Shown: positions 4,879 to 61,612, counted from the whole stretch's first letter. The stretch: DNA of 61,612 bases, filler included, from 3 parts of 3 records of this genome joined end to end with filler, not necessarily neighbours in it; one strand, 5' to 3'. The notes: generated by a model not told the origin, from the letters alone. Made by a program: numbers and translations.

Positions 4879-4953
4879 TTTTTTCCGATCTTATAAAATA
4901 ATTAACAATGAATATTGAATGAGAAATTAATTGGCAGACAGGGGAAAATGTCT

Positions 4954-6001: not shown

Positions 6002-6011
6002 AATTATCCTA

Positions 6012-7112
6012 TTACATAAAACTTTTTAAATATTTAATAAAAACATCATTTTCTTTTTTAAGCCCAATGCTTACTCTTAGCCATGAGGGTAACTCATAGT
6101 TTTTTATAGGCCTTACAATAACGCCATTTTCTAATAAATGCTGATAATACATCATTGCTTTTGTTTCGTCTCCTAAATTAAAACTTATAAAATTTCCATA
6201 CGAGGTTATAAATTCAATTCTAAGTTCCTTAAAAGCCTCTTCTAGCTGGGTCCTTCCTTGGTCATTAATAAGCCTACTTTTATTTATAAATTCATCATCT
6301 TTAAGGGATGCTATTGCCGCAGCTTGGGCGATATAATTTACGTTAAAGGGCTGCCTGACCCTATTCATTAAATTTATAACTTTTTTGTCTCCTACGCCAT
6401 ATCCTATCCTTAATCCAGCTAAGCCATGTGCTTTAGAAAAACTTCGAGATATTAATAAATTTTTATGTTCTGCAAGCCAGCTTAAAGCAATTGATTTTGC
6501 ATCATTACTTAGGTATTCATCGTAAGCTTCATCAAGAACAACTAAGATATGATTGGGCACTCTAGATAAAAATTTTAATATCTCAGCCTTATCAATTAAG
6601 TTGCCTGTTGGATTGTTAGGGTTAGCAATAAAAATTAGTTTTGTTTTTTTTGAGATAAGCTTCAGAAATTCATCTAAACTATGGCCGTACTCATCTGTAG
6701 GTTTTGCCTTTAAGCCAATGCCTCCCGCTGATTTTGTTACAATTTCATACACTGCAAAAGCATGTTTAGAAAATATAACTTCATCCCCTGGGGATAAAAC
6801 TGTTCGTGCAGCAAGTTCAAGGACATCATTTGAACCATTCCCTAAAATAATCTGCTCTGAATCTATCGAAAATTTTTCAGAAATGGCTCGTTTTAAATAA
6901 TATCCATTCCCATCAGGGTATCGATGAATTTCATTTATACATTCATCAATTGCATGTTTAGCTTTTGGACTCAGCCCAAGAGGATTTTCATTTGAAGCTA
7001 GCTTTACAATTTTTTCGGGCGCTATCCCAAGCTCTCTTGAAACTTCTTTTATTGGTCTGCCGCCTTCATAAGGCTCCAATTCGGCAATATATTTTGGAGT
7101 GATTATAGCCAT
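6012..7112 (-). CDS. hisC: Histidinol-phosphate/aromatic aminotransferase
   Basis: KLASNENPLG, GNGSNDV, NPNNPTG, DEAY and RSFSKAHGLAGLRIGY motifs. Confidence 0.95.
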   Translation of the reverse strand: MAIITPKYIAELEPYEGGRPIKEVSRELGIAPEKIVKLASNENPLGLSPKAKHAIDECINEIHRYPDGNGYYLKRAISEKFSIDSEQIILGNGSNDVLELAARTVLSPGDEVIFSKHAFAVYEIVTKSAGGIGLKAKPTDEYGHSLDEFLKLISKKTKLIFIANPNNPTGNLIDKAEILKFLSRVPNHILVVLDEAYDEYLSNDAKSIALSWLAEHKNLLISRSFSKAHGLAGLRIGYGVGDKKVINLMNRVRQPFNVNYIAQAAAIASLKDDEFINKSRLINDQGRTQLEEAFKELRIEFITSYGNFISFNLGDETKAMMYYQHLLENGVIVRPIKNYELPSWLRVSIGLKKENDVFIKYLKSFM

Positions 7113-8187: not shown

Positions 8188-9263
8188 GTATTATTTTTTT
8201 TAAAATCTTTCATAAACTCAACTAAACATTCTACCCCATCAAATGGCATAGCGTTATATAAGGAGGCTCTTAAACCTCCCACTACCCTATGTCCTTTTAG
8301 AGCATACAACCCCTTTTCCTCTGCTGTAGCAACAAATTTTTTGGTTAAGTCATCTTTTACTAGTCTAAAGGGCACATTCATTCTAGATCTATTTTTAATT
8401 TCAATATCATTAATATAAAAATCATCTGCATCAATGAAGTTGTATAGATAATTAGATTTTTTAATATTTAATTCTTCCATTTTTTTTAAGCCACCCAATT
8501 TCAAAAGCCACTCAAAAACCAATCCAGCCATATAAATACTAAATGTAGTAGGAGTGTTAATCATTGAATTATTCTCTGATTGGATTTTCCAGTTTAAGGT
8601 TGATGGAGTTTTTTGGTCTGCGAATGCAAGTAAATCATCCCTAACTATTACTAAAGTTAGTCCAGAAGGGCCAATATTTTTTTGCGCTCCAGCATAGACC
8701 ACTCCATAATCATCAATATTCACAGGTCTTGATAAAATCGTTGAAGACATGTCGCAAACTAGAGGAACTGCTGCTATTTTAATTGAATCAAGATACTCAA
8801 CGCCATGAACGGTTTCATTTTGACAAAAGTGAACATAAGCGTCATTTTTATCAAAATTCCAAGATCCAACACTAGGCGCTTTTTTAAAGTTAATTTCCTC
8901 TGATGATCCCGCCAATTTTATTGTGCCAAAAGGTTGGGCATCATTATAAGTTCTCTTTGACCAATATCCTGAAACAACATAGCTTGCTGACCCGCTGTTA
9001 AGTAAATTCATTGGGACCATGAAGTTTTGAGTAATCGCACCCCCCTGTAAAAAAAGGACCTTATAGTTATTTGGTATTTTAAGTAAAGTTCTTAAACTTT
9101 TTTCAGCTTTTTCCACGATTGGAAGATACTCTTTACTTCTGTGTGACATTTCCATTACGGAAATTCCAGTCTCATTAAAATTTAAAAATTCTTGCTGTGC
9201 TTGCAACATTACCTCTTTTGGAATCATTGCTGGTCCAGCAGAGAAATTATATTGGTAGCTCAT
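8184..9263 (-). CDS. serC: Phosphoserine aminotransferase
   Basis: [25 protein letters not shown] and [15 protein letters not shown] motifs. Confidence 0.97.
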
Positions 9264-11817
9264 CTTGATTCATTTCAATTTGTTCTGGTTCTACTATCTT
9301 GGCTAATCCTGATAGCTTTTCATCTTTGGTTAAGTTGATTAATGTCACACCTTGCGTTGCTCTTCCTAGCTCTCTAATTTCCGAAACACGGGTTCTTATT
9401 AAGACACCTCCCGTAGTAATTAACATAATTTCGTCAGAGTCACTGACTAATCTTGCTGCAACTACAATGCCATTTCGATCACTCACCTGAATAGCTTTTA
9501 CGCCTTGTGTTCCCCTTCCTGACTTTCTAAAGTCAGATAATACTGTTCTCTTGCCGTATCCATTTTCTGTTGCAACTAAAACAGATTCATCTTCCGAAGA
9601 TGCGATTAGAAGTGATAGCGCTTGATTTTCATCTGGGATTTTCATACCCCTAACACCTCTTGCATTTCTTCCCATACTTCTTACGCTATTTTCATCAAAC
9701 CATACTGCTTTACCACCATTAGAGACAAGCACTACATCGTTTTCACCATTTGTGATTTCAGCACCAATTAAATAATCTCCATTATCAAGTTTAATTGCGA
9801 TAATTCCATTTTTTCTAGGATTTGAAAAATCAGAAAGTGGCGTTTTCTTTACGGTTCCCTTAGAAGTTGCCATAAAAATAAATTTATCATCAACAAAGTC
9901 TTTAACCACTAGTGTTGCATTTATCTTTTCTCCAGGCATCAAGGGGAATAAATTTACAATTGGCTTACCTTTACTTATTCTGCTTCCCTGAGGTACTTCA
10001 TAAACTTTTAACCAATAAACCTGACCTCTGCTTGAAAAGCATAAGATGTTATCGTGGGTATTAGCAACGAACATCTGCTCAATAAAGTCATCTTCCTTAG
10101 CAGTCATGGCCTGCTTTCCTCGCCCACCCCTGCGTTGAGCTCTATACTCATCAAGCACTTGGGCTTTTATATAACCTGTATTAGAAATAGTAACGACTAA
10201 ATCTTGTGGCGTGATTAAATCTTCAATTGATAAGTCATTAGCATCTTCAACAATTTCACTTCTTCTCTCATCACCATATTGGGCTTTTATTTCATCAAGC
10301 TCTGTTTCAATTATTTTAGTTACTCTTTCAGCATTTTCTAATATATCTAAAAGGTCACTAATTACCTCAAGAATATTCTTATACTCGCTAACAATTTTTT
10401 CTTGCTCAAGGCCTGTTAATCTTTGTAATCTTAATTGAAGTATTTCTTGAGCTTGGTTATCAGAGAGCTTGTAGCCTTTTTCTGTAAGACCAAATTTATC
10501 AGACAAGCCATCGGGCTTTGAAAGGCCTGAAGAAGTTTTTTGGAGCATACCTTCAACTACTGTTGATTTCCATGTTTGCTTCATTAATTCAATTTTTGCT
10601 TCCGGAGGAGTCTTTGCGGATTTAATAATTTTAATCATTTCATCGACATTTTCTAATGCCACTGCCAAGCCCTCTAAAACATGACCTCGGTCCCTGGCTT
10701 TTTTTAAGTCATAAACAGTTCTTCGTGTAATAACTTCTCTTCTATGCCTTAGGAAAGCGTCAAGGATCTCTTTTAGATTAAGCAATTTTGGTTGGCCATC
10801 AATTAGGGCAACCATATTCATTCCAAAACTATCTTGAAGCTGAGTTTGTTTATATAAGTTATTCAGAACAACGTCTGGAATTTCTCCACGTTTTAACTCA
10901 ATAACCACTCTCATTCCAGATTTATCAGACTCATCCCTTAAATCAGAGATTCCATCAATTTTTTTACTATTAACAAGTTCAGCAATTTTTTCAATAAAGT
11001 TCTTCTTATTAACCTGGTATGGGAGTTCATCTACGATAATTGCTTCACGTTTTCCTCTATCAAGCTCTTCGGTATGAGTCCTTCCCCTCATTACAACCCT
11101 ACCACGCCCTGTCCTATATCCTTCTCTAACACCAGATATCCCATGGATTATGCCTGCTGTAGGAAAATCTGGAGCTGGTATTTTCTCAATAAGCTCGTCG
11201 ATAGTAATTTCAGGTTTCTTTAAAAGCTCTTGTAATCCATCAATCACCTCTGTTAGGTTATGTGGCGGGATATTTGTTGCCATACCAACGGCTATTCCAG
11301 AACTCCCATTGATAAGAAGGTTGGGAAGTTTTGTTGGCATAATAAGAGGTTCATGCTCTGAGCCATCATAATTCGGACCAAAATTAACTGTCTCTTTTTC
11401 TATATCAGATAATAATTCATGTGAAATTTTGGACATCCTAATTTCGGTATAACGCATTGCTGCAGCATTATCTCCATCAACAGAACCAAAATTTCCTTGC
11501 CCATCAATTAGCATATATCTAAGACTAAAATCTTGTGCCATCCTAACAATAGTGTCATAAACAGCTGTATCTCCATGTGGGTGATACTTACCAATTACAT
11601 CACCTACAATTCTTGCAGACTTTTTGTAGGGTCTATTAAAGCTATTACTTAGTTCGTGCATAGCATATAAAACACGTCTATGTACAGGTTTTAACCCATC
11701 CCTAACATCAGGTAAAGCTCGTCCAACGATTACGCTCATTGCGTAGTCGAGGTACGATTTTTTCATTTCTCCGTCGAGGCTTACCGGGATTGTTTCTTTT
11801 GCGAATTGATCATCCAT
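9247..11817 (-). CDS. gyrA: DNA gyrase subunit A
   Basis: [42 protein letters not shown], GyrA box QRRGGRG. Confidence 0.99.
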
Positions 11818-21727: not shown

Positions 21728-21827
21728 NNNNNNNNNNNNNNNNNNNNNNNNNNNNNNNNNNNNNNNNNNNNTTAATTAATTAANNNNNNNNNNNNNNNNN
21801 NNNNNNNNNNNNNNNNNNNNNNNNNNN
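21728..21827. other. Artificial contig-joining spacer
   Basis: 44 N + TTAATTAATTAA (stops in all six frames) + 44 N; genes are truncated on both sides. Confidence 0.97.
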
Positions 21828-43491: not shown

Positions 43492-43591
43492 NNNNNNNNN
43501 NNNNNNNNNNNNNNNNNNNNNNNNNNNNNNNNNNNTTAATTAATTAANNNNNNNNNNNNNNNNNNNNNNNNNNNNNNNNNNNNNNNNNNNN
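43492..43591. other. Artificial contig-joining spacer
   Basis: Identical 44 N + TTAATTAATTAA + 44 N. Confidence 0.97.
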
Positions 43592-48855: not shown

Positions 48856-50274
48856 ATGGAAGAAAGATATGACTCATACGATGACAATGCAGATTACACT
48901 GCTTCGTTAGATAAATTTGAAAAAATGCTCTCAAAAAATGAGCATTACTTTTTTGATGTGGAAGAGTTTGAAATATTGGTTGATCATTACTTAGATAAAA
49001 CGGATACCATTAAAGCAAAAAAAGCCATTGACATTTCTTTATTGCAGCACCCTAGCTCATCCAACCTAAAATTAAAAAAAGCACATTTTTTGGCTGCTAT
49101 TCACAAGCCGAATAAAGCCCTACAGGTTTTAAACAATTTAGAAGCATTAGAACCCTTTAATGCAGAAATATTTACCACAAAAGCGACTATCAACAGTCAA
49201 TTAAGACAGCACAACAAAGCGATAGAAAACTTTTACAAAGCCTTAAAATTGATGAGTGATAGCGCTGAGAAAGCGAACGTCAAAATTAATATTGCCTTTG
49301 AATACGAAAACTTAAACGAGTTTGATAAAGCCATTGATATTCTAAAAAAATTACTCAAAGAAAATCCAGAAAATGAGACTGTGCTTTATGAATTGGCCTT
49401 TTGTTACAATCTAAAAAACGATACGGACAATAGTATTGAATTCTTTAAAGAATTTATTGATGAATATCCTTACAGCTATGCAGCTTGGTATAATTTAGGA
49501 GTTGCTTTCAGCAGAGCTGGTTTGTTTGAAAAAGCCATTGAGGCTTACGACTTCACCTTAGCAATAAAAGAAGATTTTGCTTCAGCTTATTTTAACAAAG
49601 CCAATGCTTTAGCACTATTAGAACAGTATGAAAATGCAATAATTACTTATCGTGAAACTTTTGATTACGAAGAGCCAGACGCAACAACCTATTATTATAT
49701 TGGAGAGTGTTATGAGAAATTAGGAGACCCCAAATCTGCCATTTCTAATTATTACAAATCAACAAAATTAGATCCTTTCCATGCCGATGCTTGGGCGGGA
49801 ATGGCCGTTATCAATGAGGAAGAGAACAAAAGCCAATCGGCTGTTTTTTATATCAAAAAAGCATTAGAACTAGAAAATAACAACTCTGAATATTGGTATA
49901 TTTATGGCGATATTTTGGCAAAAACAGGATTATTTGATGAAGCCATAATTGCTTACAACAAGGTAGTTGAGTATGATGAGGAAAATGAAGATATTTGGTT
50001 AGACAAAGCTGAAGTGATGAAGGATTATGAAAATCTTGACAATGGGATTAACACACTTTATGAAGGATTAGAAAAACAACCAAAAAATAACTTGATTTAT
50101 GCAAGATTAGTCGCATATTTGCTGATGAATGGAAAAGAGGATGAAGCCTTGCTAAATTTGACCATTCTTTTAACGAATGATAAGGAGCTGGTTGCCGAGA
50201 TAATAGAATTTTATCCAGGAACACTAAGCCACCAAAAAGTGATTGATTTAATAGAGAATTTTAAGAACGAATAA
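48856..50274 (+). CDS. Tetratricopeptide repeat protein
   Basis: Multiple TPRs (AWYNLGVAF, AYFNKANAL, TYYYIGECY); N-terminal FEKML...YFFDVEEFE. Confidence 0.9.
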   Translation: MEERYDSYDDNADYTASLDKFEKMLSKNEHYFFDVEEFEILVDHYLDKTDTIKAKKAIDISLLQHPSSSNLKLKKAHFLAAIHKPNKALQVLNNLEALEPFNAEIFTTKATINSQLRQHNKAIENFYKALKLMSDSAEKANVKINIAFEYENLNEFDKAIDILKKLLKENPENETVLYELAFCYNLKNDTDNSIEFFKEFIDEYPYSYAAWYNLGVAFSRAGLFEKAIEAYDFTLAIKEDFASAYFNKANALALLEQYENAIITYRETFDYEEPDATTYYYIGECYEKLGDPKSAISNYYKSTKLDPFHADAWAGMAVINEEENKSQSAVFYIKKALELENNNSEYWYIYGDILAKTGLFDEAIIAYNKVVEYDEENEDIWLDKAEVMKDYENLDNGINTLYEGLEKQPKNNLIYARLVAYLLMNGKEDEALLNLTILLTNDKELVAEIIEFYPGTLSHQKVIDLIENFKNE

Positions 50275-51056
50275 TGAATTTTGATTTACCGCACATCCCT
50301 AATAGGGAAAGTTCTCCACGTGAGATAGGATTGACAATGATGATGGATAAAGGCTTAAGCTGGAGAGAAACAGAAAACTTTATTGATGCATCGGCCCACT
50401 TAACAGATTTAGTAAAATTTGGATTTGGCACCTCATATGTAACCAATGATTTACAAAAAAAATTAGATCTGTATAAAGAAGCAGGCATTAAGACCTACTT
50501 TGGAGGAACTCTTTTTGAAGCCTTTATTGCTCGAGGAATGTTTGATGATTTTCGCAGATTAATGGATAAATACCAATTGGAGACCTGTGAAGTTTCTGAT
50601 GGTTCTATTGAATTGCCTCAAGAAAAAAAATGTGAATACATTTCTAGGTTGGCTCAAGATTTTACCGTTTTATCGGAAGTTGGTTCTAAAGAAGAAGGAA
50701 TTTTTATTAGCCCTACCAAATGGATTTCGATGATGCAAACAGAATTGGAAGCTGGATCGTGGAAAGTTATTGCCGAAGCAAGAGAAAGTGGAAATGTTGG
50801 TATTTATCGACCTAATGGAACAGCACATGTTGCTTTAGTCAATAAAATTATTTCTAACGTTAAGGTAGAAAACATCCTATGGGAGGCTCCCAAAAAAGCA
50901 CAACAAGTATGGTTTATTAAACAATTTGGTGCCAATGTAAATTTAGGGAACATTGCTTTTAATGAGGTTATCCCTTTAGAATGTCTAAGGTTAGGTTTAA
51001 GAGGAGATACCTTTTTTGATAACCTTCCTAAAGAAGCCCTTGTCGAATTCAAATAA
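50274..51056 (+). CDS. comA: Phosphosulfolactate synthase (ComA family)
   Basis: GLTMMMDKG, VKFGFGTS, GGTLFE, EVSDG, SEVGSK, EARESG, WEAP, NVNLGN, LECLRLGLRGDT. Confidence 0.93.
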   Translation: MNFDLPHIPNRESSPREIGLTMMMDKGLSWRETENFIDASAHLTDLVKFGFGTSYVTNDLQKKLDLYKEAGIKTYFGGTLFEAFIARGMFDDFRRLMDKYQLETCEVSDGSIELPQEKKCEYISRLAQDFTVLSEVGSKEEGIFISPTKWISMMQTELEAGSWKVIAEARESGNVGIYRPNGTAHVALVNKIISNVKVENILWEAPKKAQQVWFIKQFGANVNLGNIAFNEVIPLECLRLGLRGDTFFDNLPKEALVEFK

Positions 51057-51061
51057 AAAAA

Positions 51062-51361
51062 ATGAATACTATTACCGCAGAAGAGTTGAAAGCGAAACTC
51101 AACAATAATGACAATTTACAAATTATTGATATTAGAGAAGATTATGAGTTTGAAGACAACAATATTGGAGGGACAAACATTCCTATGGAAAGTGTTTTAA
51201 ACTCTTTGGACAAAATCGATACAAGCAAACAAGTTATTATCTGTTGCAGAACTGGAAAAAGGTCTGCAGCAATGACACATACTATTGAAAGAAAATTGAA
51301 CCTCAAAAATATTTACTCCCTTGAAGGAGGCGTTTTTGGTTACCTAGGAATTAAAGCTTAA
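51062..51361 (+). CDS. Single-domain rhodanese (sulfurtransferase)
   Basis: IDIRE..EF, NIP, active-site loop CRTGKRS, SLEGG. Confidence 0.9.
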   Translation: MNTITAEELKAKLNNNDNLQIIDIREDYEFEDNNIGGTNIPMESVLNSLDKIDTSKQVIICCRTGKRSAAMTHTIERKLNLKNIYSLEGGVFGYLGIKA

Positions 51362-52278
51362 TGGAAAAGTCAATTAAAGATTATAGCCTCATAAGTCTTA
51401 AAGGTATAGTCATGGGAGCAGCCGATGTTATTCCTGGGGTTTCTGGAGGTACAATAGCATTTATTACCGGTATTTACGAGGAACTTCTAGATACTATCAA
51501 TTCTGTTAATCTAGCAGCATTAAAAAAATTAAAAACCGAGGGTTTAAAAAGTTTTTGGCAGCACATTAACGGCAATTTTATTGTTGCCCTATTTTTGGGA
51601 ATAGGAATTAGTGTTTATAAACTAGCAGGTCTCGTTACCTATTTAATGGCGAACGAAGCTGTTTTACTATGGTCTTTCTTTTTTGGGCTAATTATTTCCA
51701 GTATTTACTTGGTTGGTAAAAAAATAGCACATTGGGATACCGCTAAATTTATTGGCTTAATCATTGGAACAGCAGTATCATTTTACATCACCCTTCTAGC
51801 TCCTATGGAAAACCCTAGTGCATTATGGTATGTTTTCTTGTCGGGAGCAATTGCCATCTGCGCCATGATTTTACCAGGTATTTCAGGAAGTTTTATCCTA
51901 TTGCTATTAGGTTCTTACGAACTAATTTTAACTTCTATAAAAGATTTGAAACTCGCTATTATTGCGGTTTTTGCCAGTGGCTGTGTCGTTGGTTTGCTCT
52001 CTTTTTCTAAGTTATTAAGCTGGATGTTTAAAAAGTACCATGATTTAACCATTGCCATTCTTACTGGTTTTTTAATAGGATCACTGAATAAAATATGGCC
52101 TTGGAAAGAGACCATATCAACAAGAATTAACTCTCACGGAGAAACTGTTCCATTTATTCAAGAGAACGTTTTACCAACTAATTTTAATGGGGACAACCAA
52201 TTGGTTATGGCTATTGTAATTGCTATTGTTGGTTTAGGGATCATTCTATTACTAGAAAAAGTAGCCAGTAAGGCTTAA
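51361..52278 (+). CDS. DUF368 membrane protein (undecaprenyl-phosphate translocase family)
   Basis: Two internal repeats, MGAADVIPGVSGGT and AMILPGISGS; WPW motif. Confidence 0.92.
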   Translation: MEKSIKDYSLISLKGIVMGAADVIPGVSGGTIAFITGIYEELLDTINSVNLAALKKLKTEGLKSFWQHINGNFIVALFLGIGISVYKLAGLVTYLMANEAVLLWSFFFGLIISSIYLVGKKIAHWDTAKFIGLIIGTAVSFYITLLAPMENPSALWYVFLSGAIAICAMILPGISGSFILLLLGSYELILTSIKDLKLAIIAVFASGCVVGLLSFSKLLSWMFKKYHDLTIAILTGFLIGSLNKIWPWKETISTRINSHGETVPFIQENVLPTNFNGDNQLVMAIVIAIVGLGIILLLEKVASKA

Positions 52279-52404
52279 CCCTATAAGCGCTTTTCTGCTG
52301 TTCATAAAACTGATAATTATTAGAAATAGCCAAAGGCGATGTAAATATCCGTCACTCGGCAAAGCCAAGCAACTGAGAGGAAAACTTTCCAAATTACAAA
52401 CTCT

Positions 52405-52539
52405 CTATTTGATATAGACTTCATCCTGAAGTTCACAATAAAAAGGTTCCGATTCAAATCCGTAATCTCCCCCCAAATAGTTCCTTAATTTTTTATAGCT
52501 TGGATTAACTTCTAACTAAACAAAAAAAATGCGTCTCAT
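52405..52539 (-). pseudogene. Possible small gene remnant with an in-frame TAG
   Basis: Reads MRRIFFV*LEVNPSYKKLRNYLGGDYGFESEPFYCELQDEVYIK*, with GAGGGAG just before the ATG. Confidence 0.25.
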
Positions 52540-52612
52540 ACTCCCTCTGCAAGAAGTTCGCAGAAAGCATTCTAAGTTTTGCTAAAAAAGTGAAATCTGA
52601 TTAAACTAAATA

Positions 52613-53443
52613 TTAATGATGATCTTTATTGTATTCTGGAACGGCTAAATAATCTTTAAAAAAGTTCATTCCCAAATAAAAGAAAGCAGTATCTATTAAG
52701 GCTGCAATAATCTTAAAAACATAGCCGGTTAAAATAAATGCAATTAACTGCGCACTTATTGCTTTATCATCACTTATAGGTAATGCTCCCTCAGTAAAAG
52801 AGTAAGTAATAATAATAACAGCAGTAGAATCTACCAATTGACTAATTAAGGTTGATCCGTTATTTCTTAACCACAAATGCTTCCCATTGGTTATCTTTTT
52901 CAGAAAATGAAAAATATGTACATCACAAAACTGAGCGGTTAAGTAAGCAATCATTGATGCTAAAGTTGCACCAAAAGCAAAATATCTTAATTGATAAAAG
53001 ACTCTACCATTTGTCCCTATTGGTGGCACCCCAATTTCTGGACAAGTTGATACTCCCACATAAATACCATTTAAGTAACCAACAGCATCACAAATGTCTG
53101 GTGCAGGTGGCAAAATTCCGCCTAACCATAAAATAAATAAAACCCAAATATTTAACAACAAACCGATCCAAACTAAAAGATTTGCTCTTTTCTTACCGTA
53201 GATTTCGGATATAAAATCAGTACACAAAAACGTAATGGGATAGGCCAATACTCCAACGGGCAGCATATAAGTAAATGGTTGAGCTCCTAGGTAGCCAGAA
53301 ATATCAATAAATCGGGTAATACCCAATATGTTAAGCATCGTTAAGGATCCTAAAAACAAGCCTGCCAAAATAATAAAGACAACCTCTCGTCTCCACAACA
53401 TTTGTGGCAATAATTCTATATTTTCGTCTCCAATAAATCGCAT
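52613..53443 (-). CDS. yhhQ: Queuosine precursor transporter, YhhQ/VUT family (start revised to ATG 53443)
   Basis: YPITFLCTDFISEIYG, ASMIAYLTAQFCD, HLWLRNNGSTLISQLVDS; the track's TTG start overlaps the promoter element. Confidence 0.88.
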   Translation of the reverse strand: MRFIGDENIELLPQMLWRREVVFIILAGLFLGSLTMLNILGITRFIDISGYLGAQPFTYMLPVGVLAYPITFLCTDFISEIYGKKRANLLVWIGLLLNIWVLFILWLGGILPPAPDICDAVGYLNGIYVGVSTCPEIGVPPIGTNGRVFYQLRYFAFGATLASMIAYLTAQFCDVHIFHFLKKITNGKHLWLRNNGSTLISQLVDSTAVIIITYSFTEGALPISDDKAISAQLIAFILTGYVFKIIAALIDTAFFYLGMNFFKDYLAVPEYNKDHH

Positions 53444-53452
53444 ATTAGTGGC

Positions 53453-53460
53453 CAAATATA
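53453..53460 (-). promoter_or_regulatory. Bacteroidetes -7 promoter element for yhhQ
   Basis: Minus strand TATATTTG matches TAnnTTTG, 9 nt upstream of ATG 53443. Confidence 0.6.
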
Positions 53461-53564
53461 CATTTTTATCTATGTTTTAAAAAATATTTTACACCGAAGG
53501 ATTAGAAAATTAAATTTCTTCACAATTCCCTGTTAAAAGAATTTCACGCGTAAAATTAAAACGT

Positions 53565-53572
53565 TATTTTCG
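53565..53572 (+). promoter_or_regulatory. Candidate Bacteroidetes -7 element for the four-gene signalling operon
   Basis: TATTTTCG(CAG), a common variant of TAnnTTTG, 26 nt before TTG 53599. Confidence 0.5.
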
Positions 53573-53598
53573 CAGATTAAATGTATGAATAGATAAAA

Positions 53599-56500
53599 TT
53601 GAAAAAACTATTACTATCCATATTTGGCATTGAAAAAGAAGAGTCATTAAGTGTCTCTCTCCTAATGATTCAATCTCTATTCATTGGTATTTTCAATGGC
53701 ACCTTTTACATTAGTTCACACACTTTGTTTATTGGATCTTACGGTGGAGAATCCATTCCAATGGCTTATTTAATTTCTGGTGGTGTTGGTATTGTATTGA
53801 CACTATTATATTCCAAATTACAGGAAAAAATAAAATTTGCTTTCCTTTCTAAAATCAATTTAACATTTGTAACAATTGCAACCATTGCTTTAGCCTTCAG
53901 CTATAACTATGTCAATAAAGCTTTAGTTGATTATGCTCAATTTGTCTTATTTGGTCCACTTTTCGTTTTAAGTATTGTTTCGTTTTGGGGTGTTGCTAAT
54001 AGACTGTATAATCTGCGACAAGGTAAAAGGCTATTTGGAATTATTGATGCGGGGATAATATTTGGTATAATCATTAGTAATATCGCAGTTGCAACAATTC
54101 CTTATTTCACTGGAATTGATATCAATTTTGAAGGACTCCTTTATTTTAGTGTAGGATGCACAGTAGTAACGGTAGCTATACAATTTGTAATCAGTTCTAA
54201 ATTTAATCTAGACAGAGAGAGTACGGAAGAAATTGAAGAAGAAAATATTACTGAAGAGGTTTTAGGAATAAAAGTTATGCTTCAGAACAATTATGTTTTA
54301 ATGATGGCTGCTTTTGCAGGTCTATCTATGCTTATTGCATTTTTTGTCCAATATTCATTCCTTTTAGTTTTGGCAAAAAAATATACCAATGAGATTGATT
54401 TCGGATCTTTTCTGGGGGCATTTACGGCCATAATAATGGTTTTCACTTTACTACTTAAAACATTCGTTTATAGCAAATTGATTAAAAACTATGGCCTAAA
54501 ACTCTGTTTGGTATTATTGCCAATTTTATTGGGAGGATTTACCATTGCCGCAATAGCTATTGGTTATGGTATGGGAATTGAAGATGTTGAATCTTCTGGA
54601 TTCTTGTTTTTCTTTATGGTTATAGCGCTGAGTAAATTAATCGCTCAAGCGGTTAAGGAAGGTATTGAATTGCCTTCTTTCAAATTAATTTATCAAACCC
54701 TAAACAAAAAAATACGTTTTGTAGTTCAGGCTTTAATTGACGGTACGATAAATGAATTCTCTGCTCTGATCTCTGGTTTATGTCTTGTTGGTTTATCCGC
54801 TTTAAGCTTTATTGGTTTAGTAGAGATATCAGTTGTAATGCTTTTTATTATTTTGCTTTGGCTTTACACCGCATTTACGCTATACAGTAAATACAAAGAA
54901 TCTTTAGAATCGGGGTTAAAAGTTAAAATTGATGAGGATGAACAAAACGTTGTTACACCCATTGCTAATTCCATCTTAAACAAACTTAAAACTGGAGCGA
55001 GTATTACAGATCCTAACTTGGTAATAAGTTTACAAGCGATAGATCCTGTATTGTTTGAAAAAGAAATCAAGATCATTGAAGATAAAATAAGTACGACAGA
55101 ATTACAGTCATTTTTGATGAATGAAATTTTAGAATACCCAAATCAAAATCATTTGGATACATTAAGCAATATTGAACAAAACAGCTCTTCAGTATCCATT
55201 AAAACCCAGGCAAAAAAAATCATTAAAGAAATAAAGGAGACTTACAAAGTAATAGATTACAAAACAATCATTGCGCTTTCAAACTCAAAACTTAAAAAAG
55301 ACAGAATTACAGCTGCCTTAATGATCAGGTCCAATTATGATGCTAAATATGATACCATATTATTAAGACTTATTAAAGACCCTAATTTACAAGTTAAAAT
55401 TGAAGTGATTCAGACCTGTGGGCTGCTACATAAAACCGAATTTACCCCTATTATAATAGAATATTTAGCCGATGATGAATTATACTCAACAGCTTTTTCT
55501 GCAATTAAAGAACTTGGCGAAAATGTTATCGAGTATCTTTCACAAGCCTATTTTAAATCTAATGTTTCTGATAAATCATTAGTAGTAGTCACCAAGCTTA
55601 TCTCTTTTATCAATACCGAACAAGCCAATACACTATTAATTGAAAAACTATTCTCTAAGAATAGGTTAATTATGAGGCAAGCTGCAATCGGCATTAATGC
55701 AAAAAAAATAAGTCCAAAATCAGAAAAGGAAAAGCTAGAATTAATTAACCTGCTAAATGAGCAAATAGCCGTTGTTGCATGGAATTATGCTGCCTACAAT
55801 GCTTTTAATGTAAGTAATCCTGAAATGGCCAATACTATTGAAGCCATAGAGGATGACATTAACTTATCAAAAGAAATTTTATTTTCACTACTCTCAATTA
55901 TTTATGATTTTGGTTCCATTCAAATTGTAAAAAACAATATTGAAACAGGCAATCCAGATAATATAAGTTATGCCATAGAAATGCTAGACTTATTTATCGA
56001 TGAACATCTTAAACCAAAACTTTTCCCTGTTTTAGATGACAGCAGATTAAATCTTAGAATCATTCAATTAGAAGATTATTTTCCTATAGAGATATTTAAA
56101 GCCGAAAACATTTATGACTTAGTGCTCAATAGAGATAGTAATTTTATTTCAGACTGGACTAAAGCAAGTCTTATTTACGAGCTTGATTTAGAAAAAAATG
56201 AAACCACACAAACCTTCTTAGCTCAATTATTTAATCCAAAAAAAATTATAAGAGAAACAGCTTATCATAAGATGATTGGTATAAACAACGAGTTGAAAAA
56301 TTCTATTTTAGATCGTTTTCCTGAAAGCGAAAGATTTAACTTGGCTAAAGAAATAGCAAGAGTCTCAAAAGATAGTAATGACCTTATGGTGCTTTCATTA
56401 TTGCGTTTAAAGAACATTATTGCACAGGATGGATTTAAGCCTATGAATTGGGTTGCTGACATACCACATATAAAACCTGCAGTCGTAGAAGTGCAAAATG

Positions 56501-56691
56501 ATATTGTTTTGAAAGAAAACGCTATTAACTACTTACTCCGAAGCACCAACAACCAAGAATCATGCGATATTATTAGCCATAGTTATTCAGGATTAAAATT
56601 AAATGATCGAATTATAAGTATAAATAAATCTGTTTTTAACAAAATAGCGAGTCATAGATTACTAACTGGAATTTTATTAGCAGACAATTAA
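53599..56691 (+). CDS. Npt1/TLC-like MFS transporter domain fused to HEAT repeats, with a possible degenerate cNMP-binding tail
   Basis: About 12 TM segments in residues 1-430 with FWGVANRLYNLRQGKRLFGII and LIYQTL...R; HEAT-like repeats (LLRLIKDPNLQVKIEVIQTCG, SYAIEMLD). Confidence 0.8.
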   Translation: MKKLLLSIFGIEKEESLSVSLLMIQSLFIGIFNGTFYISSHTLFIGSYGGESIPMAYLISGGVGIVLTLLYSKLQEKIKFAFLSKINLTFVTIATIALAFSYNYVNKALVDYAQFVLFGPLFVLSIVSFWGVANRLYNLRQGKRLFGIIDAGIIFGIIISNIAVATIPYFTGIDINFEGLLYFSVGCTVVTVAIQFVISSKFNLDRESTEEIEEENITEEVLGIKVMLQNNYVLMMAAFAGLSMLIAFFVQYSFLLVLAKKYTNEIDFGSFLGAFTAIIMVFTLLLKTFVYSKLIKNYGLKLCLVLLPILLGGFTIAAIAIGYGMGIEDVESSGFLFFFMVIALSKLIAQAVKEGIELPSFKLIYQTLNKKIRFVVQALIDGTINEFSALISGLCLVGLSALSFIGLVEISVVMLFIILLWLYTAFTLYSKYKESLESGLKVKIDEDEQNVVTPIANSILNKLKTGASITDPNLVISLQAIDPVLFEKEIKIIEDKISTTELQSFLMNEILEYPNQNHLDTLSNIEQNSSSVSIKTQAKKIIKEIKETYKVIDYKTIIALSNSKLKKDRITAALMIRSNYDAKYDTILLRLIKDPNLQVKIEVIQTCGLLHKTEFTPIIIEYLADDELYSTAFSAIKELGENVIEYLSQAYFKSNVSDKSLVVVTKLISFINTEQANTLLIEKLFSKNRLIMRQAAIGINAKKISPKSEKEKLELINLLNEQIAVVAWNYAAYNAFNVSNPEMANTIEAIEDDINLSKEILFSLLSIIYDFGSIQIVKNNIETGNPDNISYAIEMLDLFIDEHLKPKLFPVLDDSRLNLRIIQLEDYFPIEIFKAENIYDLVLNRDSNFISDWTKASLIYELDLEKNETTQTFLAQLFNPKKIIRETAYHKMIGINNELKNSILDRFPESERFNLAKEIARVSKDSNDLMVLSLLRLKNIIAQDGFKPMNWVADIPHIKPAVVEVQNDIVLKENAINYLLRSTNNQESCDIISHSYSGLKLNDRIISINKSVFNKIASHRLLTGILLADN

Positions 56692-56744
56692 AGAGAACTT
56701 CCCTTTTTTATATTTTTATAGATTTGTGGATTAGAAATAAAAAC

Positions 56745-58721
56745 ATGAAGAACAACAATAAGACATCAACAATATTTAAACAGCTCATACTAAATATTAT
56801 TGTTCCTGTTGTTTGTGCGCTTGTTATTTTGGCATTACTGAACCAATATCGCGTAAAAACAACAACTGATCAAAATAACAAAATTCAAAATCAGTTAATT
56901 ACTGATCAAATTGAGCTAAGTTTAATACACCAAGATTTTGGACTAGAAGCAGTAGAATCCAGAATTGAGGCAGACCTTTTTGTTCAAAGCCATCATTTGG
57001 TAAACCGCTATTTCAAAAACACAGACAGTATTGAAGTAGTTGATTTATCAGCCATAAGAGATTCATTAAATATGTATTCTCGTGAGCAGGATATATACAT
57101 CATAAATAGAAACGGAGTTATTGTAAATACAACCTTTGCAAAAGACAAAGACTTTAACCTGTTTACCATTGGAGAACAATTTCAAACCTATTTGGAAAAT
57201 GTATTTGAGGGAAAAGAATATGTAAGCGAAAAATTCTCCATAGAATTAAAAACAGGAAAACTGCGTAAATACACCTACCAACCTACACTCGATGGCAACT
57301 ACCTCATTCAAACAGGGACCTATAAGTTAGAAGCAGATAAATGGGTAAACAAAACAAAAGAAACCTTAAACAATATTTCTAAAAAATATAAAAACATTAA
57401 AAAAATCGATTTATTCATTGATGCCGATACACCTTTTAGCTTAATCACATCAGATAAAACATCTGAAGATCCATCCTTTATAAAAGAGATATTTAATACC
57501 CTTGATACCAACCGCAGTAAAACAATCCTCTATAAAGAGAACGGCAGGTATATGGAAAAAGAATATATCCCTATGAAAAGGCAAAATACTAAGCTTTACA
57601 AAAAAGCATTGATAGAAATAATTGCCGATAGAACAGACATCCATAACAGTCAAAGGAATGATCTTCTGCAGAATGTTGCCATTTTCCTTTTCACTATTCT
57701 TTTGGTAATATTTTTAATTTACCAAAAAACCAAGGTCATCACCTCACCAATTAAAAAGCTTTTAAACAATGTAAATAGAATTACTAAAGGTGATTTATCA
57801 GGTAGAGCCGATGTTGAAGGAAACAACGAAATAACAAAATTATCTGAAAAGTTCAACGATATGGTTGAACGTTTGCAAACCCTATACAACAACTTGGAGG
57901 CAAAAGTTAAGGAAAGAACTGCTGATTTAAATGCAAAGAAAAACGAGTTAGAAGAGCAGAAAAAGGACATCGAAGATAGCATTAGATATGCCAAAAGAAT
58001 TCAAAATGCTATCCTCCCTCCCATGCCTTATGTAAAATCTTTGTTCCCTAATTCATTTATTTTCTATCAATCTAAAGATATCGTAAGTGGAGATTTTTAC
58101 TGGGTTGGTGAAGTAGATAACATAAAACTAATGGCCATTGTCGATTGCACTGGGCACGGAGTTCCAGGTGCATTTATGAGTATTATTGGAAACAATCAAT
58201 TGACACAAACTGTAGGAATAGAAAGAACAGACTTGCCCTCCAAAATACTTAATGATGTCAATAGTGGGGTTACTGCTTTACTTAGACAAACCAAAGGAAA
58301 TACAGAAGTTAAAGACGGAATGGACTTAGCACTGATATCAATTGATTACGACACATTAGAACTCAACTATGCCGGAGCCTATAATCCTTTGTATATTATT
58401 AGAGATAAAGCATTAATTGAAATTAAAGCTGATAAATTTCCAATAGGTGGTTTTCTGAATCAAGATTTAGAGAAATTTAACAACAATAAATTTCAGCTAA
58501 TGAAAGACGATATGCTATTTATGTTTTCAGATGGATATATGGATCAATTTGGTGGGCCTAAAGGGAAAAAATTCAAATCGAGGAATATGAAAAATTTAAT
58601 GATTGAAATTTGCCATTTGCCTTGTGAAGAACAACATGATATTCTTAAAAAGACCATTAATGACTGGATGGTGAATGAAGAGCAGGTGGATGATATTTTA
58701 GTTTCAGGAATTAAGATTTAG
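56745..58721 (+). CDS. Membrane receptor Ser/Thr phosphatase: TM - extracytoplasmic sensor - TM - HAMP - coiled coil - PP2C/SpoIIE (RsbU-like)
   Basis: HAMP PIKKL...ITKGDL...NEITKLSEKFNDM; SIRYAKRIQNAILP, KDIVSGDFYW, VDCTGHGVPGAFMS, DGMD, FSDGYMDQFGG, QVDDI. Start taken as ATG 56745. Confidence 0.93.
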   Translation: MKNNNKTSTIFKQLILNIIVPVVCALVILALLNQYRVKTTTDQNNKIQNQLITDQIELSLIHQDFGLEAVESRIEADLFVQSHHLVNRYFKNTDSIEVVDLSAIRDSLNMYSREQDIYIINRNGVIVNTTFAKDKDFNLFTIGEQFQTYLENVFEGKEYVSEKFSIELKTGKLRKYTYQPTLDGNYLIQTGTYKLEADKWVNKTKETLNNISKKYKNIKKIDLFIDADTPFSLITSDKTSEDPSFIKEIFNTLDTNRSKTILYKENGRYMEKEYIPMKRQNTKLYKKALIEIIADRTDIHNSQRNDLLQNVAIFLFTILLVIFLIYQKTKVITSPIKKLLNNVNRITKGDLSGRADVEGNNEITKLSEKFNDMVERLQTLYNNLEAKVKERTADLNAKKNELEEQKKDIEDSIRYAKRIQNAILPPMPYVKSLFPNSFIFYQSKDIVSGDFYWVGEVDNIKLMAIVDCTGHGVPGAFMSIIGNNQLTQTVGIERTDLPSKILNDVNSGVTALLRQTKGNTEVKDGMDLALISIDYDTLELNYAGAYNPLYIIRDKALIEIKADKFPIGGFLNQDLEKFNNNKFQLMKDDMLFMFSDGYMDQFGGPKGKKFKSRNMKNLMIEICHLPCEEQHDILKKTINDWMVNEEQVDDILVSGIKI

Positions 58722-58729
58722 GCATAACT

Positions 58730-59998
58730 ATGAGCAATAAGACTACAGTATATCTCTGTTCGGATAACCAACAATTAAAAGATTGGGCAAATCTATTTTG
58801 TGAAAACTTATCTATGATTTCTACCCAATTTTTGGGTGCTTCAGAAAAGATCGACCTTACATTATTTTCTGGGGAATTAACCACTTCCGATAAACACATC
58901 TTTGTCTTGACAGCAAACGATAAGGGTGATTTTTCTGCAATTGAAAAATCAGATAACAACTTATTTCAACTCCATCTTTCGCCTACCCCATTCAATAAAA
59001 TTCCATCATTTTTGCACAATGCTCCAATGTTCGAATTTTATGATACAGATATGGCTAGCAATCAATCTGTATGGAGTAATTTAGATGTAAGCACTGGAAA
59101 GAGCTGGGGGAAATTACTCGACTTTACCAAAAGCTTATTCGATAAATATAAGAAAGATAAACACACCATATATTTAGCAAAAACATCTGTTAATCAAGTT
59201 CGAAATAGAGAATTGCTAAAACGAGATTTACTCAACCAAGGCTATCGTGTAATTCCAGAAATTCCGTTAAACACCTCTAATATAGAGGTGCTTGAACAGC
59301 AGATTACCTCATTGACCAATGCCGCTGAATTGAGTATTCATATCTTTGGTAACGACATTAACGAATTAGATGATAAGGTGCTAGAGATAGTCGAATTTCA
59401 AAATAAAGTTGCTAAAAATAACGCCAGTTTACAGCGGCTTATTTGGCTGCCAACAGATGTAAGATTGGATAAGGTAAATGCTGAAAAAATTAGTGTTTTA
59501 CGAAAAGATTTAGAGCTCTTAAAAGGTGCTGAATTTGTTGAAGCTCCATTGGAATTATTCAAATCTTTAGTGTATCAAAAAATTGAGCACATCTCTTTCA
59601 AAAATGTTGAAAAAAATAAGGCTTTATACTTGATTTACGACAATATCGAAAATCAAGATATTAAACAAATTAAGGCTGAAATTGAGAAAAACAAACTTGG
59701 TGTTTTAGTCGTTAACAATCTAGACGAACACCCTTTGGTGAACCATAAGAATAACCTAAAAAATTCTAATGGCATTATCATTTATTATGATGGTTCTAAT
59801 AGCAATTGGATTGAAAATATTTTAAACGATATTATCAAAGCACCAAAATACCGAAATAACAAGCAGATTAATTCTATTGGTATCATAAGTAAGAGTAAAT
59901 TAAGCTTGAAACCAGAATTGGAAAGTTATAAATTAGAAAAAATTGACATTTCAAACCAAGACCAATTAGAAACCTTTATTCAAAACATAGATAAATGA
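58730..59998 (+). CDS. Hypothetical protein with tandem TIR/DUF4062-like alpha/beta domains
   Basis: Three units starting VYL/IYL/LYL (TTVYLCSD, HTIYLAKTS..RELLKRDLLNQGYRVIP..LSIHIFG, KALYLIYD..NGIIIYYDGSNSNW). The fold call is my inference. Confidence 0.6.
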   Translation: MSNKTTVYLCSDNQQLKDWANLFCENLSMISTQFLGASEKIDLTLFSGELTTSDKHIFVLTANDKGDFSAIEKSDNNLFQLHLSPTPFNKIPSFLHNAPMFEFYDTDMASNQSVWSNLDVSTGKSWGKLLDFTKSLFDKYKKDKHTIYLAKTSVNQVRNRELLKRDLLNQGYRVIPEIPLNTSNIEVLEQQITSLTNAAELSIHIFGNDINELDDKVLEIVEFQNKVAKNNASLQRLIWLPTDVRLDKVNAEKISVLRKDLELLKGAEFVEAPLELFKSLVYQKIEHISFKNVEKNKALYLIYDNIENQDIKQIKAEIEKNKLGVLVVNNLDEHPLVNHKNNLKNSNGIIIYYDGSNSNWIENILNDIIKAPKYRNNKQINSIGIISKSKLSLKPELESYKLEKIDISNQDQLETFIQNIDK

Positions 59999-61612
59999 GT
60001 TCAGTTTTATTAAATAAGGGGCAAGATTCGTTTTTAACAAAGCAAATAGATTACAACCCATTTCCTGGATTAAGGCCATTTACCCCCAACGAAAGCCATT
60101 TATTCTTTGGTAGAGAGGGACAAAGCGAAGAAATTCTTGAAAAATTATCTGACAACAAATTTGTTGCAGTAGTTGGAACTTCTGGTAGTGGGAAATCTTC
60201 ATTAATGTATTGTGGCGTATTGCCAATATTGCATGCGGGTTTTGTTAAGGGTGCCGGCTCTAATTGGGAAATCATTACTACCCGACCAGGATCTGGACCA
60301 ATTGGTAATTTAGCAGAGGCCATATTACAAAATAAATCAGATACTGGCCGACAAAATAAAAATTATACCGAAGAGTTGGCATTGAACAGTGCTGTTTTGA
60401 GGTCTAGTTCAAATGGTCTTATAGATATTGCTTCACAATTTGGAAAGGATAAAAGCATATTAGTTGTAGTCGATCAATTTGAAGAACTTTTTAGGTTTAA
60501 AAATTCCCAAGATAAAAACGCGATTAATGAATCCTTAGCTTTTGTAAAGCTTTTGTTAAATGCGGTAAAGGATAAAAACTCAAAAATATACGTTGTACTA
60601 ACGATGCGTTCTGATTTTATTGGCGACTGTGCTCAATTTCAGGAATTAACAGAACTCATTAACGATAGTCAGTACCTTATTCCGAGGATGACACGTGAAG
60701 ATGTTCAAAATGCAATTAAGGGACCAATTGCTGTTGGTGGTGGTAAGATTTCTAACCGCTTAACCAATCAGTTACTAAATGAAATTGGAGACAACCAAGA
60801 TCAACTCCCAATTTTGCAACACGCCTTAATGCGAACATGGGATTATTGGTCAAAGTATAAAGCGGAAGGAGAAGTTATTGATATTCCGCACTACGAGTCT
60901 ATCGGTAGGATGGAAAAAGCACTTTCCGAACACGCCAATGAGGCTTTTGATGAATTAACTCCAGAAGGCAAAGACATTTGTCAAAACTTATTTAAAACCC
61001 TTACCGAAAAAGGTTCGGAAAATAGAGGGACGCGAAGACCTACTGTGGTAAAAGAAATTGCTGAAATTGCCATTTGTGATCCGACACAGATTATAGAAAT
61101 TTTTGAGAATTTTAGTCAAACTGGCAGATCTTTTTTAACCTCCAGTGATCAAGTAATTACGCCAAGTTCTGTAATTGATATCTCCCACGAGAGTTTAATG
61201 AGAATTTGGGATCGATTAATTGCTTGGGTTGAAGAAGAGTCTGGGGCGGTTTCGATGTATCTTAAGTTATCTGAATCTGCGGCCCTTTACCAAGTTGGTA
61301 AAACGGGTTTATGGAGACCGCCAGATCTTCAACTAGCTACCAAATGGAAAGAATTAAAAAAGCCAACATTAACTTGGGCGGTAAGACATGATATCGCTTT
61401 TGAAAGAACAATGTCTTTCTTAACGGCTAGTGTTTTAGACCACGAGGCTGAAGAGTTAAATAAAATTAAACTTCAAAAAAAGGCTTTAAGAAGATCGCGT
61501 ATATTCGCAATCGTACTTGGTACAGCGGCCATTATTTTGATGTTCATATTGGTTTGGGCCATCCTACAAAAGGTTAAAGCCGATAAACTAACCATTGAAG
61601 CAAATGAACAGC
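59995..61612 (+). CDS. nSTAND1-type STAND NTPase with TM helix, 3'-truncated (not in ORF track)
   Basis: My translation from ATG 59995: NPFPGLRPF..ESHLFFGRE, Walker A GTSGSGKSS, Walker B VVVDQFEELF, LTMRSDF, LPILQHAL, ISHESLMRIWDRL, then KKALRRSR and TM IFAIVLGTAAIILMFILVWAIL; open to the window end. Confidence 0.92.
   Translation, partial: MSSVLLNKGQDSFLTKQIDYNPFPGLRPFTPNESHLFFGREGQSEEILEKLSDNKFVAVVGTSGSGKSSLMYCGVLPILHAGFVKGAGSNWEIITTRPGSGPIGNLAEAILQNKSDTGRQNKNYTEELALNSAVLRSSSNGLIDIASQFGKDKSILVVVDQFEELFRFKNSQDKNAINESLAFVKLLLNAVKDKNSKIYVVLTMRSDFIGDCAQFQELTELINDSQYLIPRMTREDVQNAIKGPIAVGGGKISNRLTNQLLNEIGDNQDQLPILQHALMRTWDYWSKYKAEGEVIDIPHYESIGRMEKALSEHANEAFDELTPEGKDICQNLFKTLTEKGSENRGTRRPTVVKEIAEIAICDPTQIIEIFENFSQTGRSFLTSSDQVITPSSVIDISHESLMRIWDRLIAWVEEESGAVSMYLKLSESAALYQVGKTGLWRPPDLQLATKWKELKKPTLTWAVRHDIAFERTMSFLTASVLDHEAEELNKIKLQKKALRRSRIFAIVLGTAAIILMFILVWAILQKVKADKLTIEANEQ

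Follow-up and report, generated by a model that had tools for sequence, protein, structure and literature searches.

The nSTAND1 NTPases are known from biological conflict systems, where, as the main text of their survey presents them, they are cytosolic, carry fused N-terminal effectors or effector-associated domains (EADs), and sense through FGS domains or repeats (PMC8195603). The DUF4062 or 'NIR' NADases include Swarozyc, Evangelion, PsAvs2, Vulcan and Vesta, together with human TEP1 and NWD1 (DUF4062-NACHT-WD40); in the relevant parts of three 2026 preprints the activity of these domains needs one glutamate, the E of an E-Y motif, and E-to-Q mutants are described as abolishing NADase-dependent defence in DUF4062 proteins (10.64898/2026.09.04.749371). 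[quoted passage not shown] Here we describe four genes, g1 to g4, on the plus strand at 53599–61611 of a 61,612-nucleotide stretch of DNA joined from three contigs (the window, by which we mean the whole stretch analysed): an NTT/TLC-type membrane protein with HEAT repeats (g1), a HAMP-PP2C receptor phosphatase (g2), a three-domain TIR/DUF4062-like protein (g3) and an nSTAND1 switch with a transmembrane (TM) helix (g4), which in relatives are followed by three further genes, g5 to g7. We propose, giving the idea an even chance of being right, that this seven-gene cluster is a trans-envelope, Toll-receptor-like signalling device, with g1–g4 as its cytoplasmic and inner-membrane half.

The cluster resembles each of the described systems in part. 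With the nSTAND1 clade (PF20703) g4 shares its family match, intact Walker A and B motifs, the WD40 repeats of its orthologues, and a partner of the TIR/deoxyribohydrolase type; unlike the conflict systems as set out in the main text of the survey, the cluster keeps its effector-like module as a separate gene and its NTPase without an N-terminal domain, while the TM helix and an alanine-zipper stalk of g4 would place the WD40 repeats outside the cytoplasm, and envelope genes follow. The relevant parts of that main text do not describe a layout of the g4 type (Kaur, Iyer, Burroughs, Aravind 2021, PMC8195603). As for g3, its middle domain is of the DUF4062 family, to judge from Pfam matches of its orthologues and from alignment, and the order DUF4062-STAND-WD40 is that of TEP1/NWD1 and of PsAvs2, here spread over two genes; unlike the DUF4062 NADases, g3 has Gln-Asn in place of E-Y and two flanking TIR-like domains, and the WD40 repeats, in g4, are predicted to be extracytoplasmic. 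The g1 family shares the three-part architecture of the NTT-HEAT-cNBD fusions, the window's copy being without a detectable cNBD and below the TLC cut-off; no link to STAND or TIR genes is reported in the part of the paper that bears on these fusions (PMC5381601). With SiaA, of the Pseudomonas SiaABCD biofilm switch, g2 has in common two TM helices, a periplasmic domain, HAMP and PP2C; unlike SiaABCD, the cluster holds no SiaB-, SiaC- or SiaD-like genes, and the periplasmic domain of g2 is unrelated to that of SiaA. The cNBD of the g1 family resembles that of the Pycsar effector PycTIR, and one g3 variant (locus L070) has a PycC-like cyclase; unlike Pycsar, this cluster type has no cyclase, and the window's proteins match none of the Pycsar models in PADLOC.

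Two better-known signalling systems offer parallels of design. In FecA-FecR-FecI, the outer-membrane protein extends into the periplasm at its N-terminus and signals to a single-pass inner-membrane protein; the cluster is like such systems in logic only, its transducer being a STAND NTPase and not an anti-sigma factor, and it encodes no sigma factor. In Toll-like receptor/MyD88 signalling, an extracytoplasmic repeat sensor is joined through one TM helix to non-catalytic cytosolic TIR scaffolds; here the layout is alike without any sequence relationship, and the cluster has neither a TIR-bearing receptor nor a kinase.

Against PADLOC-DB 2.0, a library from 2023 that predates the description of DUF4062 systems, the window's four proteins gave two weak P-loop matches, both in g4 (mad8, 5e-4; mad3, 6.5e-4), and among 23 proteins of related clusters g3–g6 gave the same weak matches and nothing else; no PADLOC system model was matched, by either set, beyond weak P-loop or cNBD matches. 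This comparison had been suggested in an earlier note on the same DNA, which also knew of no experimentally characterised system of this composition; we likewise found no experimental study of the cluster in the literature searched. The accessions of a g4 homologue in Cytophaga hutchinsonii appeared in none of the papers searched, and no title on C. hutchinsonii WD40 proteins pointed to the gene.

Results

A conserved gene cluster

The order g1-g2-g3-g4-g5-g6-g7 recurs in six loci at 23–52% protein identity. Two of these, L005 and L004, are the nearest relatives of the window's locus; the other four (L016–L019) keep the same order, with g1 and g3 at 23–35% identity and g4 at about 50%. A narrower g3 alignment (A2) led to two loci. 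We sampled 87 genomes of the order to which one of the host's relatives (G043) belongs and found g3 profile matches in eight, strong g1 profile matches in seven (with one unrelated NTT besides), and PF20703 in the same seven, in G088 and in one different nSTAND1 protein; g1, g3 and g4 thus occur together in the same seven of the 87, one copy each. Across the phylum, in a sample of 401 Bacteroidota genomes, 19 held some g3 match and eight a full-length g3. The earlier note had read the four genes as one system, and the idea of a conserved unit stands, given the shared seven genomes and the six loci; its extent does not, since the unit has seven genes rather than four. The conservation of the genes goes far beyond what chance would give.

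Outside these loci the cluster appears in several abridged or altered forms. Five other Bacteroidota genomes (L061–L065) have g1-g3-g4-g5-g6 and a giant open reading frame (ORF) without g2, and in four of the five the PP2C domains of the genome lie elsewhere, in other architectures; the PP2C protein is therefore an addition in one lineage, and the phosphatase reset that had been proposed cannot belong to the core. Two loci (L015, L060) combine a TrkA_N protein, g3, g4 and a TonB-dependent receptor; another (L066) has g3, g4 and two TPR-S proteins; and four more (L067–L070) pair a TIR/DUF4062 protein with two tandem nSTAND1-TM paralogues of about 1350 aa, those of L070 being two 1349-aa genes that follow a cyclase-bearing g3 variant. 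WD40 repeats were not found in the C-terminal parts of the tandem nSTAND1 proteins of L067–L069, of which one copy was scanned. As judged from these gene orders, the core that does not vary is the pair g3-g4, with g3 immediately upstream.

Several of these loci carry further genes. In L066 the place of the outer-membrane genes is taken, at 3326-6122 on the minus strand, by an alpha/beta-hydrolase-TPR-S protein and a MAP3K_TRAF_bd/TPR-S protein; L067–L069 share a conserved 268-aa downstream gene; and L063 has a 137-aa ORF of the PD-(D/E)XK_3 nuclease superfamily between g1 and g3 (10840-11253, minus strand).

g4, a predicted membrane-anchored STAND switch

The last gene in the window, g4 (59995–61611, plus strand), is open at the window end and gives 539 aa. 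Its match to nSTAND1 (PF20703) covers residues 22-433 at 6.7e-96 (322.6 bits against a cut-off of 27.1). Walker A, read from the translation as GTSGSGKSS (residues 61-69, 60175–60201), has G61 and S63-S69 invariant in 13 orthologues, as are D160-E164 of the Walker B stretch VVDQFEE. A hydropathy scan finds one strong TM helix at residues 506-524 (61510–61566), preceded by a Lys/Arg-rich stretch, and a single TM segment in every g4 orthologue and paralogue examined; the description of g4 as membrane-anchored therefore holds.

What lies on either side of this helix is strikingly regular. The linker from NTPase to TM helix measures 65 residues in 13 of 13 orthologues, and beyond the helix an alanine recurs at each seventh residue between 529 and 634 in 10–13 of the 13 sequences. 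The resulting stalk spans 119, 126 or 140 residues, equal to 17, 18 or 20 heptads. A coiled coil rises by about 0.15 nm per residue, and this alanine zipper, if a canonical coiled coil, would be about 18 nm long, roughly the width of the periplasm. The window's copy ends at residue 539, within the first stalk residues; full-length orthologues run to 1010-1074 aa (1026-1057 aa in the six syntenic loci) and carry a WD40 propeller at about 696-1020, so that the WD40 repeats, and the further genes, that had been expected downstream are seen in relatives.

In the nine clusters with g5–g7 outside the closest pair (L016–L019, L061–L065), the NTPase is 55–64% identical to that of L004 and the WD40 part 29–41%, about the conservation of g5 (25–36%). 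By these identities the propeller is less conserved than the NTPase, yet not hypervariable. Used alone as a query, the periplasmic part of g4 resembles at least 659 protein clusters; the best 120 of these are mostly 1000-1150 aa long and nearly all have PF20703, and the named ones among them are mostly from Bacteroidota, one being from C. hutchinsonii ATCC 33406.

g3, a TIR/DUF4062-like protein lacking catalytic glutamates

Directly upstream, g3 (58730–59998, plus strand, 422 aa) encodes a cytoplasmic protein whose AlphaFold2 model (pLDDT 82.8) has three alpha/beta domains. Read together with the orthologues, the model divides it into a TIR remnant (residues 1-142), a DUF4062-like domain (143-294) and a TIR/flavodoxin-like domain (295-422). 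Compared by structure (VIA-align), domain 2 is best matched by the TIR-STING (Z 11.5) and IL-1RAcPb TIR (11.3) domains, and for domain 3 REC, NDT and the SARM1 TIR are tied at Z 10.6-11.5; with these folds tied, fold alone is no proof of TIR, and it is sequence that decides the family. The whole model submitted to Foldseek returned generic multi-Rossmann matches only (TM-score 0.15-0.33) and was uninformative.

The family signal emerges from the orthologues. The window's g3 has no Pfam match at E<=0.01, DUF4062 (PF13271) and TIR_2 (PF13676) included, and a profile of 20 homologues (alignment A1) detected no solved DUF4062 structure among Protein Data Bank (PDB) sequences; the same comparison gave weak Toll-like-receptor TIR matches for the N-domain (TLR1 TIR, E 0.0047). 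Three orthologues exceed the DUF4062 cut-off in domain 2 (32.1, 28.2 and 27.7 bits against 24.7), and 11 of the 20 A1 members match DUF4062 at E<=0.01. TIR_2 is found in domain 1 of the orthologues at L062 (31.2 bits against 28) and L066 (61.9), and domain 3 of the L016 orthologue shows a weak TIR_2 signal (2.6e-4).

At the position of the DUF4062 NADase catalytic glutamate g3 has Gln224 (codon 59399–59401, plus strand), Gln224-Asn225 aligning to the E-Y or E-F of six canonical DUF4062 domains from genomes of the same order. This glutamine is a family trait: it stands in 19 of 20 A1 members and in all 18 cluster copies, and among the best 152 representatives of the g3 family, which counts 1681 representatives at E<=1e-30, the site holds Gln in 144, Glu in seven and Cys in one. 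It is the same change that abolishes activity in published DUF4062 proteins, as the relevant part of that work describes it. The second active site has also decayed at this locus. In the window, L004 and L005, g3 has lost the TIR WCxxE segment by deletion, and the TIR glutamate is absent from 10 of 11 clusters that hold g1, L018 keeping it; the variants L015, L060, L066 and L067-69 retain it. To judge from these residues g3 looks catalytically dead. Because both catalytic glutamates are missing at the locus, 'adaptor' is a better word for it than 'NADase', and the earlier suggestion of a TIR-like adaptor fits.

The predicted carrier g1 and the receptor phosphatase g2

The first gene, g1 (53599–56691, plus strand, TTG start, 1030 aa), encodes about 12 TM helices at about residues 20-420 and HEAT repeats at 568-636, followed by a divergent C-terminal domain in the position where orthologues have a cNBD. 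Its own Pfam matches are weak (MFS_1 4.5e-4, HEAT_2 2.6e-4): there is no TLC (PF03219) match at E<=0.01, the L004 orthologue reaching 25.5 bits against a cut-off of 21, and the C-terminus matches no Pfam family. An alignment of 12 family members (A5) is more telling. HEAT_2 is found in 12 of 12 members, cNMP_binding in five and TLC (at E<=1e-3) in three, and the A5 profile reaches the solved plastid and bacterial ADP/ATP carriers (NTT1 9j3n_A, 1.2e-17; 9j3j_A, 7.4e-16), alphaRep/HEAT structures (8.2e-21) and the cNBD of PKG (6.1e-18), with a resemblance to the cNBD of the Pycsar effector PycTIR (8jsk_A, 4.4e-9). On these profile matches g1 has the NTT-HEAT-cNBD architecture at the level of its family, and nucleotide transport is its predicted activity.

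The second gene can be read from a TTG at 56724 to 58721 (plus strand, 665 aa); the ATG at 56745 is the likelier start because the L004 orthologue begins there. Numbered from the TTG, g2 has TM helices at 21-39 and 314-332 that enclose about 275 periplasmic residues, HAMP at 338-385 (7.2e-11, 42.7 bits against 25), a coiled coil, and SpoIIE/PP2C (PF07228) at 470-660 (9.9e-17, 61.9 bits against 25). The Asp-containing stretches GDFY, DCTGHG, SDG and VDD are visible and are presumably metal ligands. The periplasmic domain has no Pfam match at E<=1, and the SiaA equivalog model (NF038263) scores 235.8 bits, far below its cut-off of 700, with model positions 310-653 covered. With the NTT1, HAMP-PP2C and nSTAND1 matches and the DUF4062 and TIR_2 signals of the g3 orthologues, the domain calls of the earlier note are borne out at the level of families. 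In G043 the g2 orthologue is split (L005 8015-8440 and 8491-9990, 141 and 499 aa), either because the gene is broken or because the assembly is wrong.

The envelope genes g5 to g7

Beyond g4, the relatives encode three proteins of the envelope. g5 has a signal peptide, an N-domain of about 100 residues and an outer-membrane beta-barrel (OMP_b-brl_2). The N-domain is helical and secreted, has a Cys pair, and keeps C28, Y39, G42 and C54 invariant; it recurs at the N-terminus of the TonB-dependent receptors found in L015 and L060 in place of g5. g6 has a lipobox/lipoprotein signal and weak SBBP beta-propeller matches, and g7 is a giant secreted protein with a signal peptide and SprB, PKD, CUB and Ig-like repeats, which in G075 reaches 3269 aa and ends in a type A sorting domain of the type IX secretion system (T9SS). 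g7 evolves fast and aligns well among close relatives only. In L004 and L018 the genes g3, g4, g5 and g6 overlap or lie no more than 14 nt apart. As the three additional genes all encode envelope proteins, the picture of a four-gene membrane system becomes that of a trans-envelope device.

Gene spacing and transcription

The four genes of the window are co-oriented, with 53 nt between the g1 stop (56691) and the ATG at 56745, 8 nt between g2 and g3, and a 4-nt overlap (ATGA) of g3 and g4, exactly as had been noted from the sequence. The single Bacteroidetes-type promoter element also proposed for them was not confirmed. The presumed promoter region is the spacer between a divergent Vut_1 gene and g1 (53456–53598), and no exact copy of TAnnTTTG, which we take to be that element, occurs on its plus strand; inspection by eye shows a copy with a single mismatch some 25-35 nt ahead of the g1 start codon. 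Nor is the motif enriched in the window, which holds 86 copies against 93.8 expected from shuffles. One exact copy (TAGATTTG) was found in the g1-g2 spacer at 56719–56726 (plus strand). It is possibly an internal promoter element for g2, a lead only because the motif is not enriched.

A scan of 52200-61612 for terminator-like sites found none on the plus strand within g1–g4, its three sites all being on the minus strand; like the promoter scan, it did not rise above chance. In two metatranscriptome libraries there are contigs that partly cover g1, g2, g3 and g4, and two of them cross gene junctions, g1/g2 (56597-56843) and g3/g4 (59956-60119); large parts of g2, g3 and g4 are left uncovered, which tells nothing either way. 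These contigs are compatible with co-transcription, to which they lend weak support because the libraries may contain DNA and contigs are not transcripts.

Source of the contig

The window joins three contigs by linkers, N44-TTAATTAATTAA-N44 blocks at 21728-21827 and 43492-43591, and g1–g4 lie on the third (contig C, 43592-61612). Over a 3.4-kb stretch, contig B shares 99% identity with G001, a genome of 1.2 Mb, and contigs A and B are proteobacterium-like in the genes that they carry (pyrroloquinoline quinone (PQQ) synthesis, GlnD, sdhCDAB, the methylcitrate cycle). Contig C matches G001 in ClpB only, at 67-75%, and matches two Flavobacteriales metagenome-assembled genomes (G042 and G043) at 73-80% across most of its length. 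By these likenesses the organism of contig C differs from that of the tested contig B stretch; as the one is Flavobacteriales-like and the other G001-like, the source assembly is probably a mixed bin, and the cluster belongs to a Flavobacteriales-like marine organism. A search of G001 and 40 relatives for the cluster (0 of 41) is uninformative, because G001 is kin to the other contigs of the joined stretch only. The whole stretch is present in two seawater metagenomes at 95-99% likeness, and a seawater DNA contig extends 1689 nt past the window end, beyond the cut-off g4.

Around the cluster lie housekeeping genes that are syntenic among relatives. Upstream, 48856-53455 encodes a TPR protein, the phosphosulfolactate synthase ComA, a rhodanese, a VCA0040-like translocase and the divergent Vut_1 transporter, and the order of TPR, ComA, VCA0040-like and Vut_1 genes is kept in L004. 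On contig A a PQQ-type set (1747-4878, minus strand) consists of a radical SAM/SPASM protein, PqqD, a PqqC-like TENA/THI-4 protein and a metallo-beta-lactamase fold, and adjoins aromatic amino-acid genes.

Discussion

For the trans-envelope signalling device, we infer every contact between cluster proteins as well as the output. The stalk of g4 would hold the WD40 propeller under the outer membrane, docked on the g5 N-domain, on g6 or on both, and the propeller would convey what condition the outer membrane or a g7 'antenna' is in—attachment, load, damage or ligand, for example. The signal would pass through stalk and TM helix to drive nucleotide exchange and oligomerisation of the STAND NTPase; the oligomer would recruit g3, a TIR-type scaffold like the MyD88-type adaptors; and g3 would act on the HEAT/cNBD tail of g1, with a change in nucleotide transport as the result. 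In this lineage g2 may add a second periplasmic input or a reset.

Several observations weigh against such a device. Its last step, from g3 to g1, we infer purely from gene adjacency; the last 130 aa of the window's g1 show no cNBD signal at E<=1; and the cluster encodes no transcription factor, kinase or cyclase. The periplasmic placement of the WD40 repeats follows from one predicted TM helix and from an ATPase that is necessarily cytoplasmic. The relatives are not independent of one another, so the co-occurrence counts overstate, and the distribution is patchy (8 of 87 genomes; 8 of 401 with full-length g3). The domains themselves also have a different reputation: STAND, TIR and DUF4062 are hallmark defence domains, and the cNBD of the g1 family resembles that of a Pycsar effector. 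The TIR catalytic glutamate is kept in 118 of the 152 best g3-family representatives, so the ancestral output of the family was, on residue conservation, probably enzymatic, as in immune TIRs; and in L070 an adenylate/guanylate cyclase (8980-11073; PycC, 1.8e-9) replaces the N-terminal TIR.

Much of this would suit the main rival, a system of the abortive-infection type, directed against phages or invaders and keeping watch on the envelope; we regard it as unlikely. Its periplasmic WD40 propeller would detect phage adsorption, injection or outer-membrane damage, and the STAND oligomer would then set off an effector, either an NTT-type carrier draining ATP or NAD or else residual TIR/DUF4062 chemistry. 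nSTAND1 was defined within conflict systems, as the main text of its survey has it (PMC8195603), and DUF4062 and TIR proteins are proven defence NADases according to the relevant parts of three 2026 preprints. The retained TIR glutamate, in those 118 representatives and in the variants L015, L060, L066 and L067-69, the Pycsar-like traits of L070 and of the g1 cNBD, the patchy distribution and the fast-evolving surface protein g7 all point the same way. At this locus, however, both catalytic glutamates are missing, no PADLOC model matched, and the sensor domain is conserved rather than hypervariable; the cluster is single-copy, adjoins no mobile-element genes and sits between syntenic housekeeping flanks, and three structural genes dedicated to the envelope set it apart from known defence operons.

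A quite improbable alternative reverses the direction of the signal, making the STAND ATPase an inside-out controller of the giant surface adhesin g7, in adhesion or gliding, for example. The cytoplasmic nucleotide state, sensed through g1/cNBD and g3, would alter the conformation, anchoring or release of g7, the effect being transmitted by stalk and propeller and by the g5/g6 module at the outer membrane. A giant secreted protein does always stand last in the cluster, with SprB, PKD, CUB and Ig repeats and a T9SS sorting domain; stalk length is fixed, quantised in heptads; and g3–g6 are tightly coupled. Yet STAND NTPases are switches, and to our knowledge none is a force generator; L015 and L060 have a TonB-dependent receptor and no giant adhesin in the stretch examined; and g7 is so poorly conserved that a specific mechanical coupling would be hard to maintain. 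That the genes are mere neighbours without a shared function is barely credible: the unconfirmed promoter, the 53-nt g1-g2 spacer with its possible internal promoter motif and the absence of g2 from five clusters in other Bacteroidota genomes would allow it, but synteny contradicts it, with gene order kept at 23–35% identity (g1, g3) despite different flanks, exact phyletic co-occurrence, the g3/g4 ATGA overlap and RNA-library contigs bridging g1/g2 and g3/g4.

As far as can be told, four traits of the cluster are new: a glutamine that stands at the DUF4062 catalytic site throughout the family; the loss, coupled to it, of the TIR glutamate wherever clusters include the carrier, with L018 as the exception; a PP2C protein confined to one lineage; and the N-domain shared by alternative outer-membrane partners. 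In its boldest form, which we advance tentatively and hold to be somewhat unlikely, the trans-envelope device is a 'Toll-like receptor built from an NLR', in which dead TIR scaffolds gate a nucleotide carrier and no killing ensues. If true, it would be a new route from cell-surface events to cytoplasmic nucleotide traffic, and it would capture a stage at which an immune-type TIR/DUF4062 enzyme had become, as in animals, a domesticated adaptor. C. hutchinsonii, a genetically tractable species, has a homologue, which makes these questions testable. STAND/NLR switches are understood as cytosolic, whereas the large g4 family has a predicted extracytoplasmic sensor that would be wired to outer-membrane proteins; TIR/DUF4062 proteins without catalytic residues parallel the shift from enzyme to adaptor in animal TIR signalling; and the cluster may provide the first conserved functional context for the uncharacterised NTT-HEAT-cNBD carriers.

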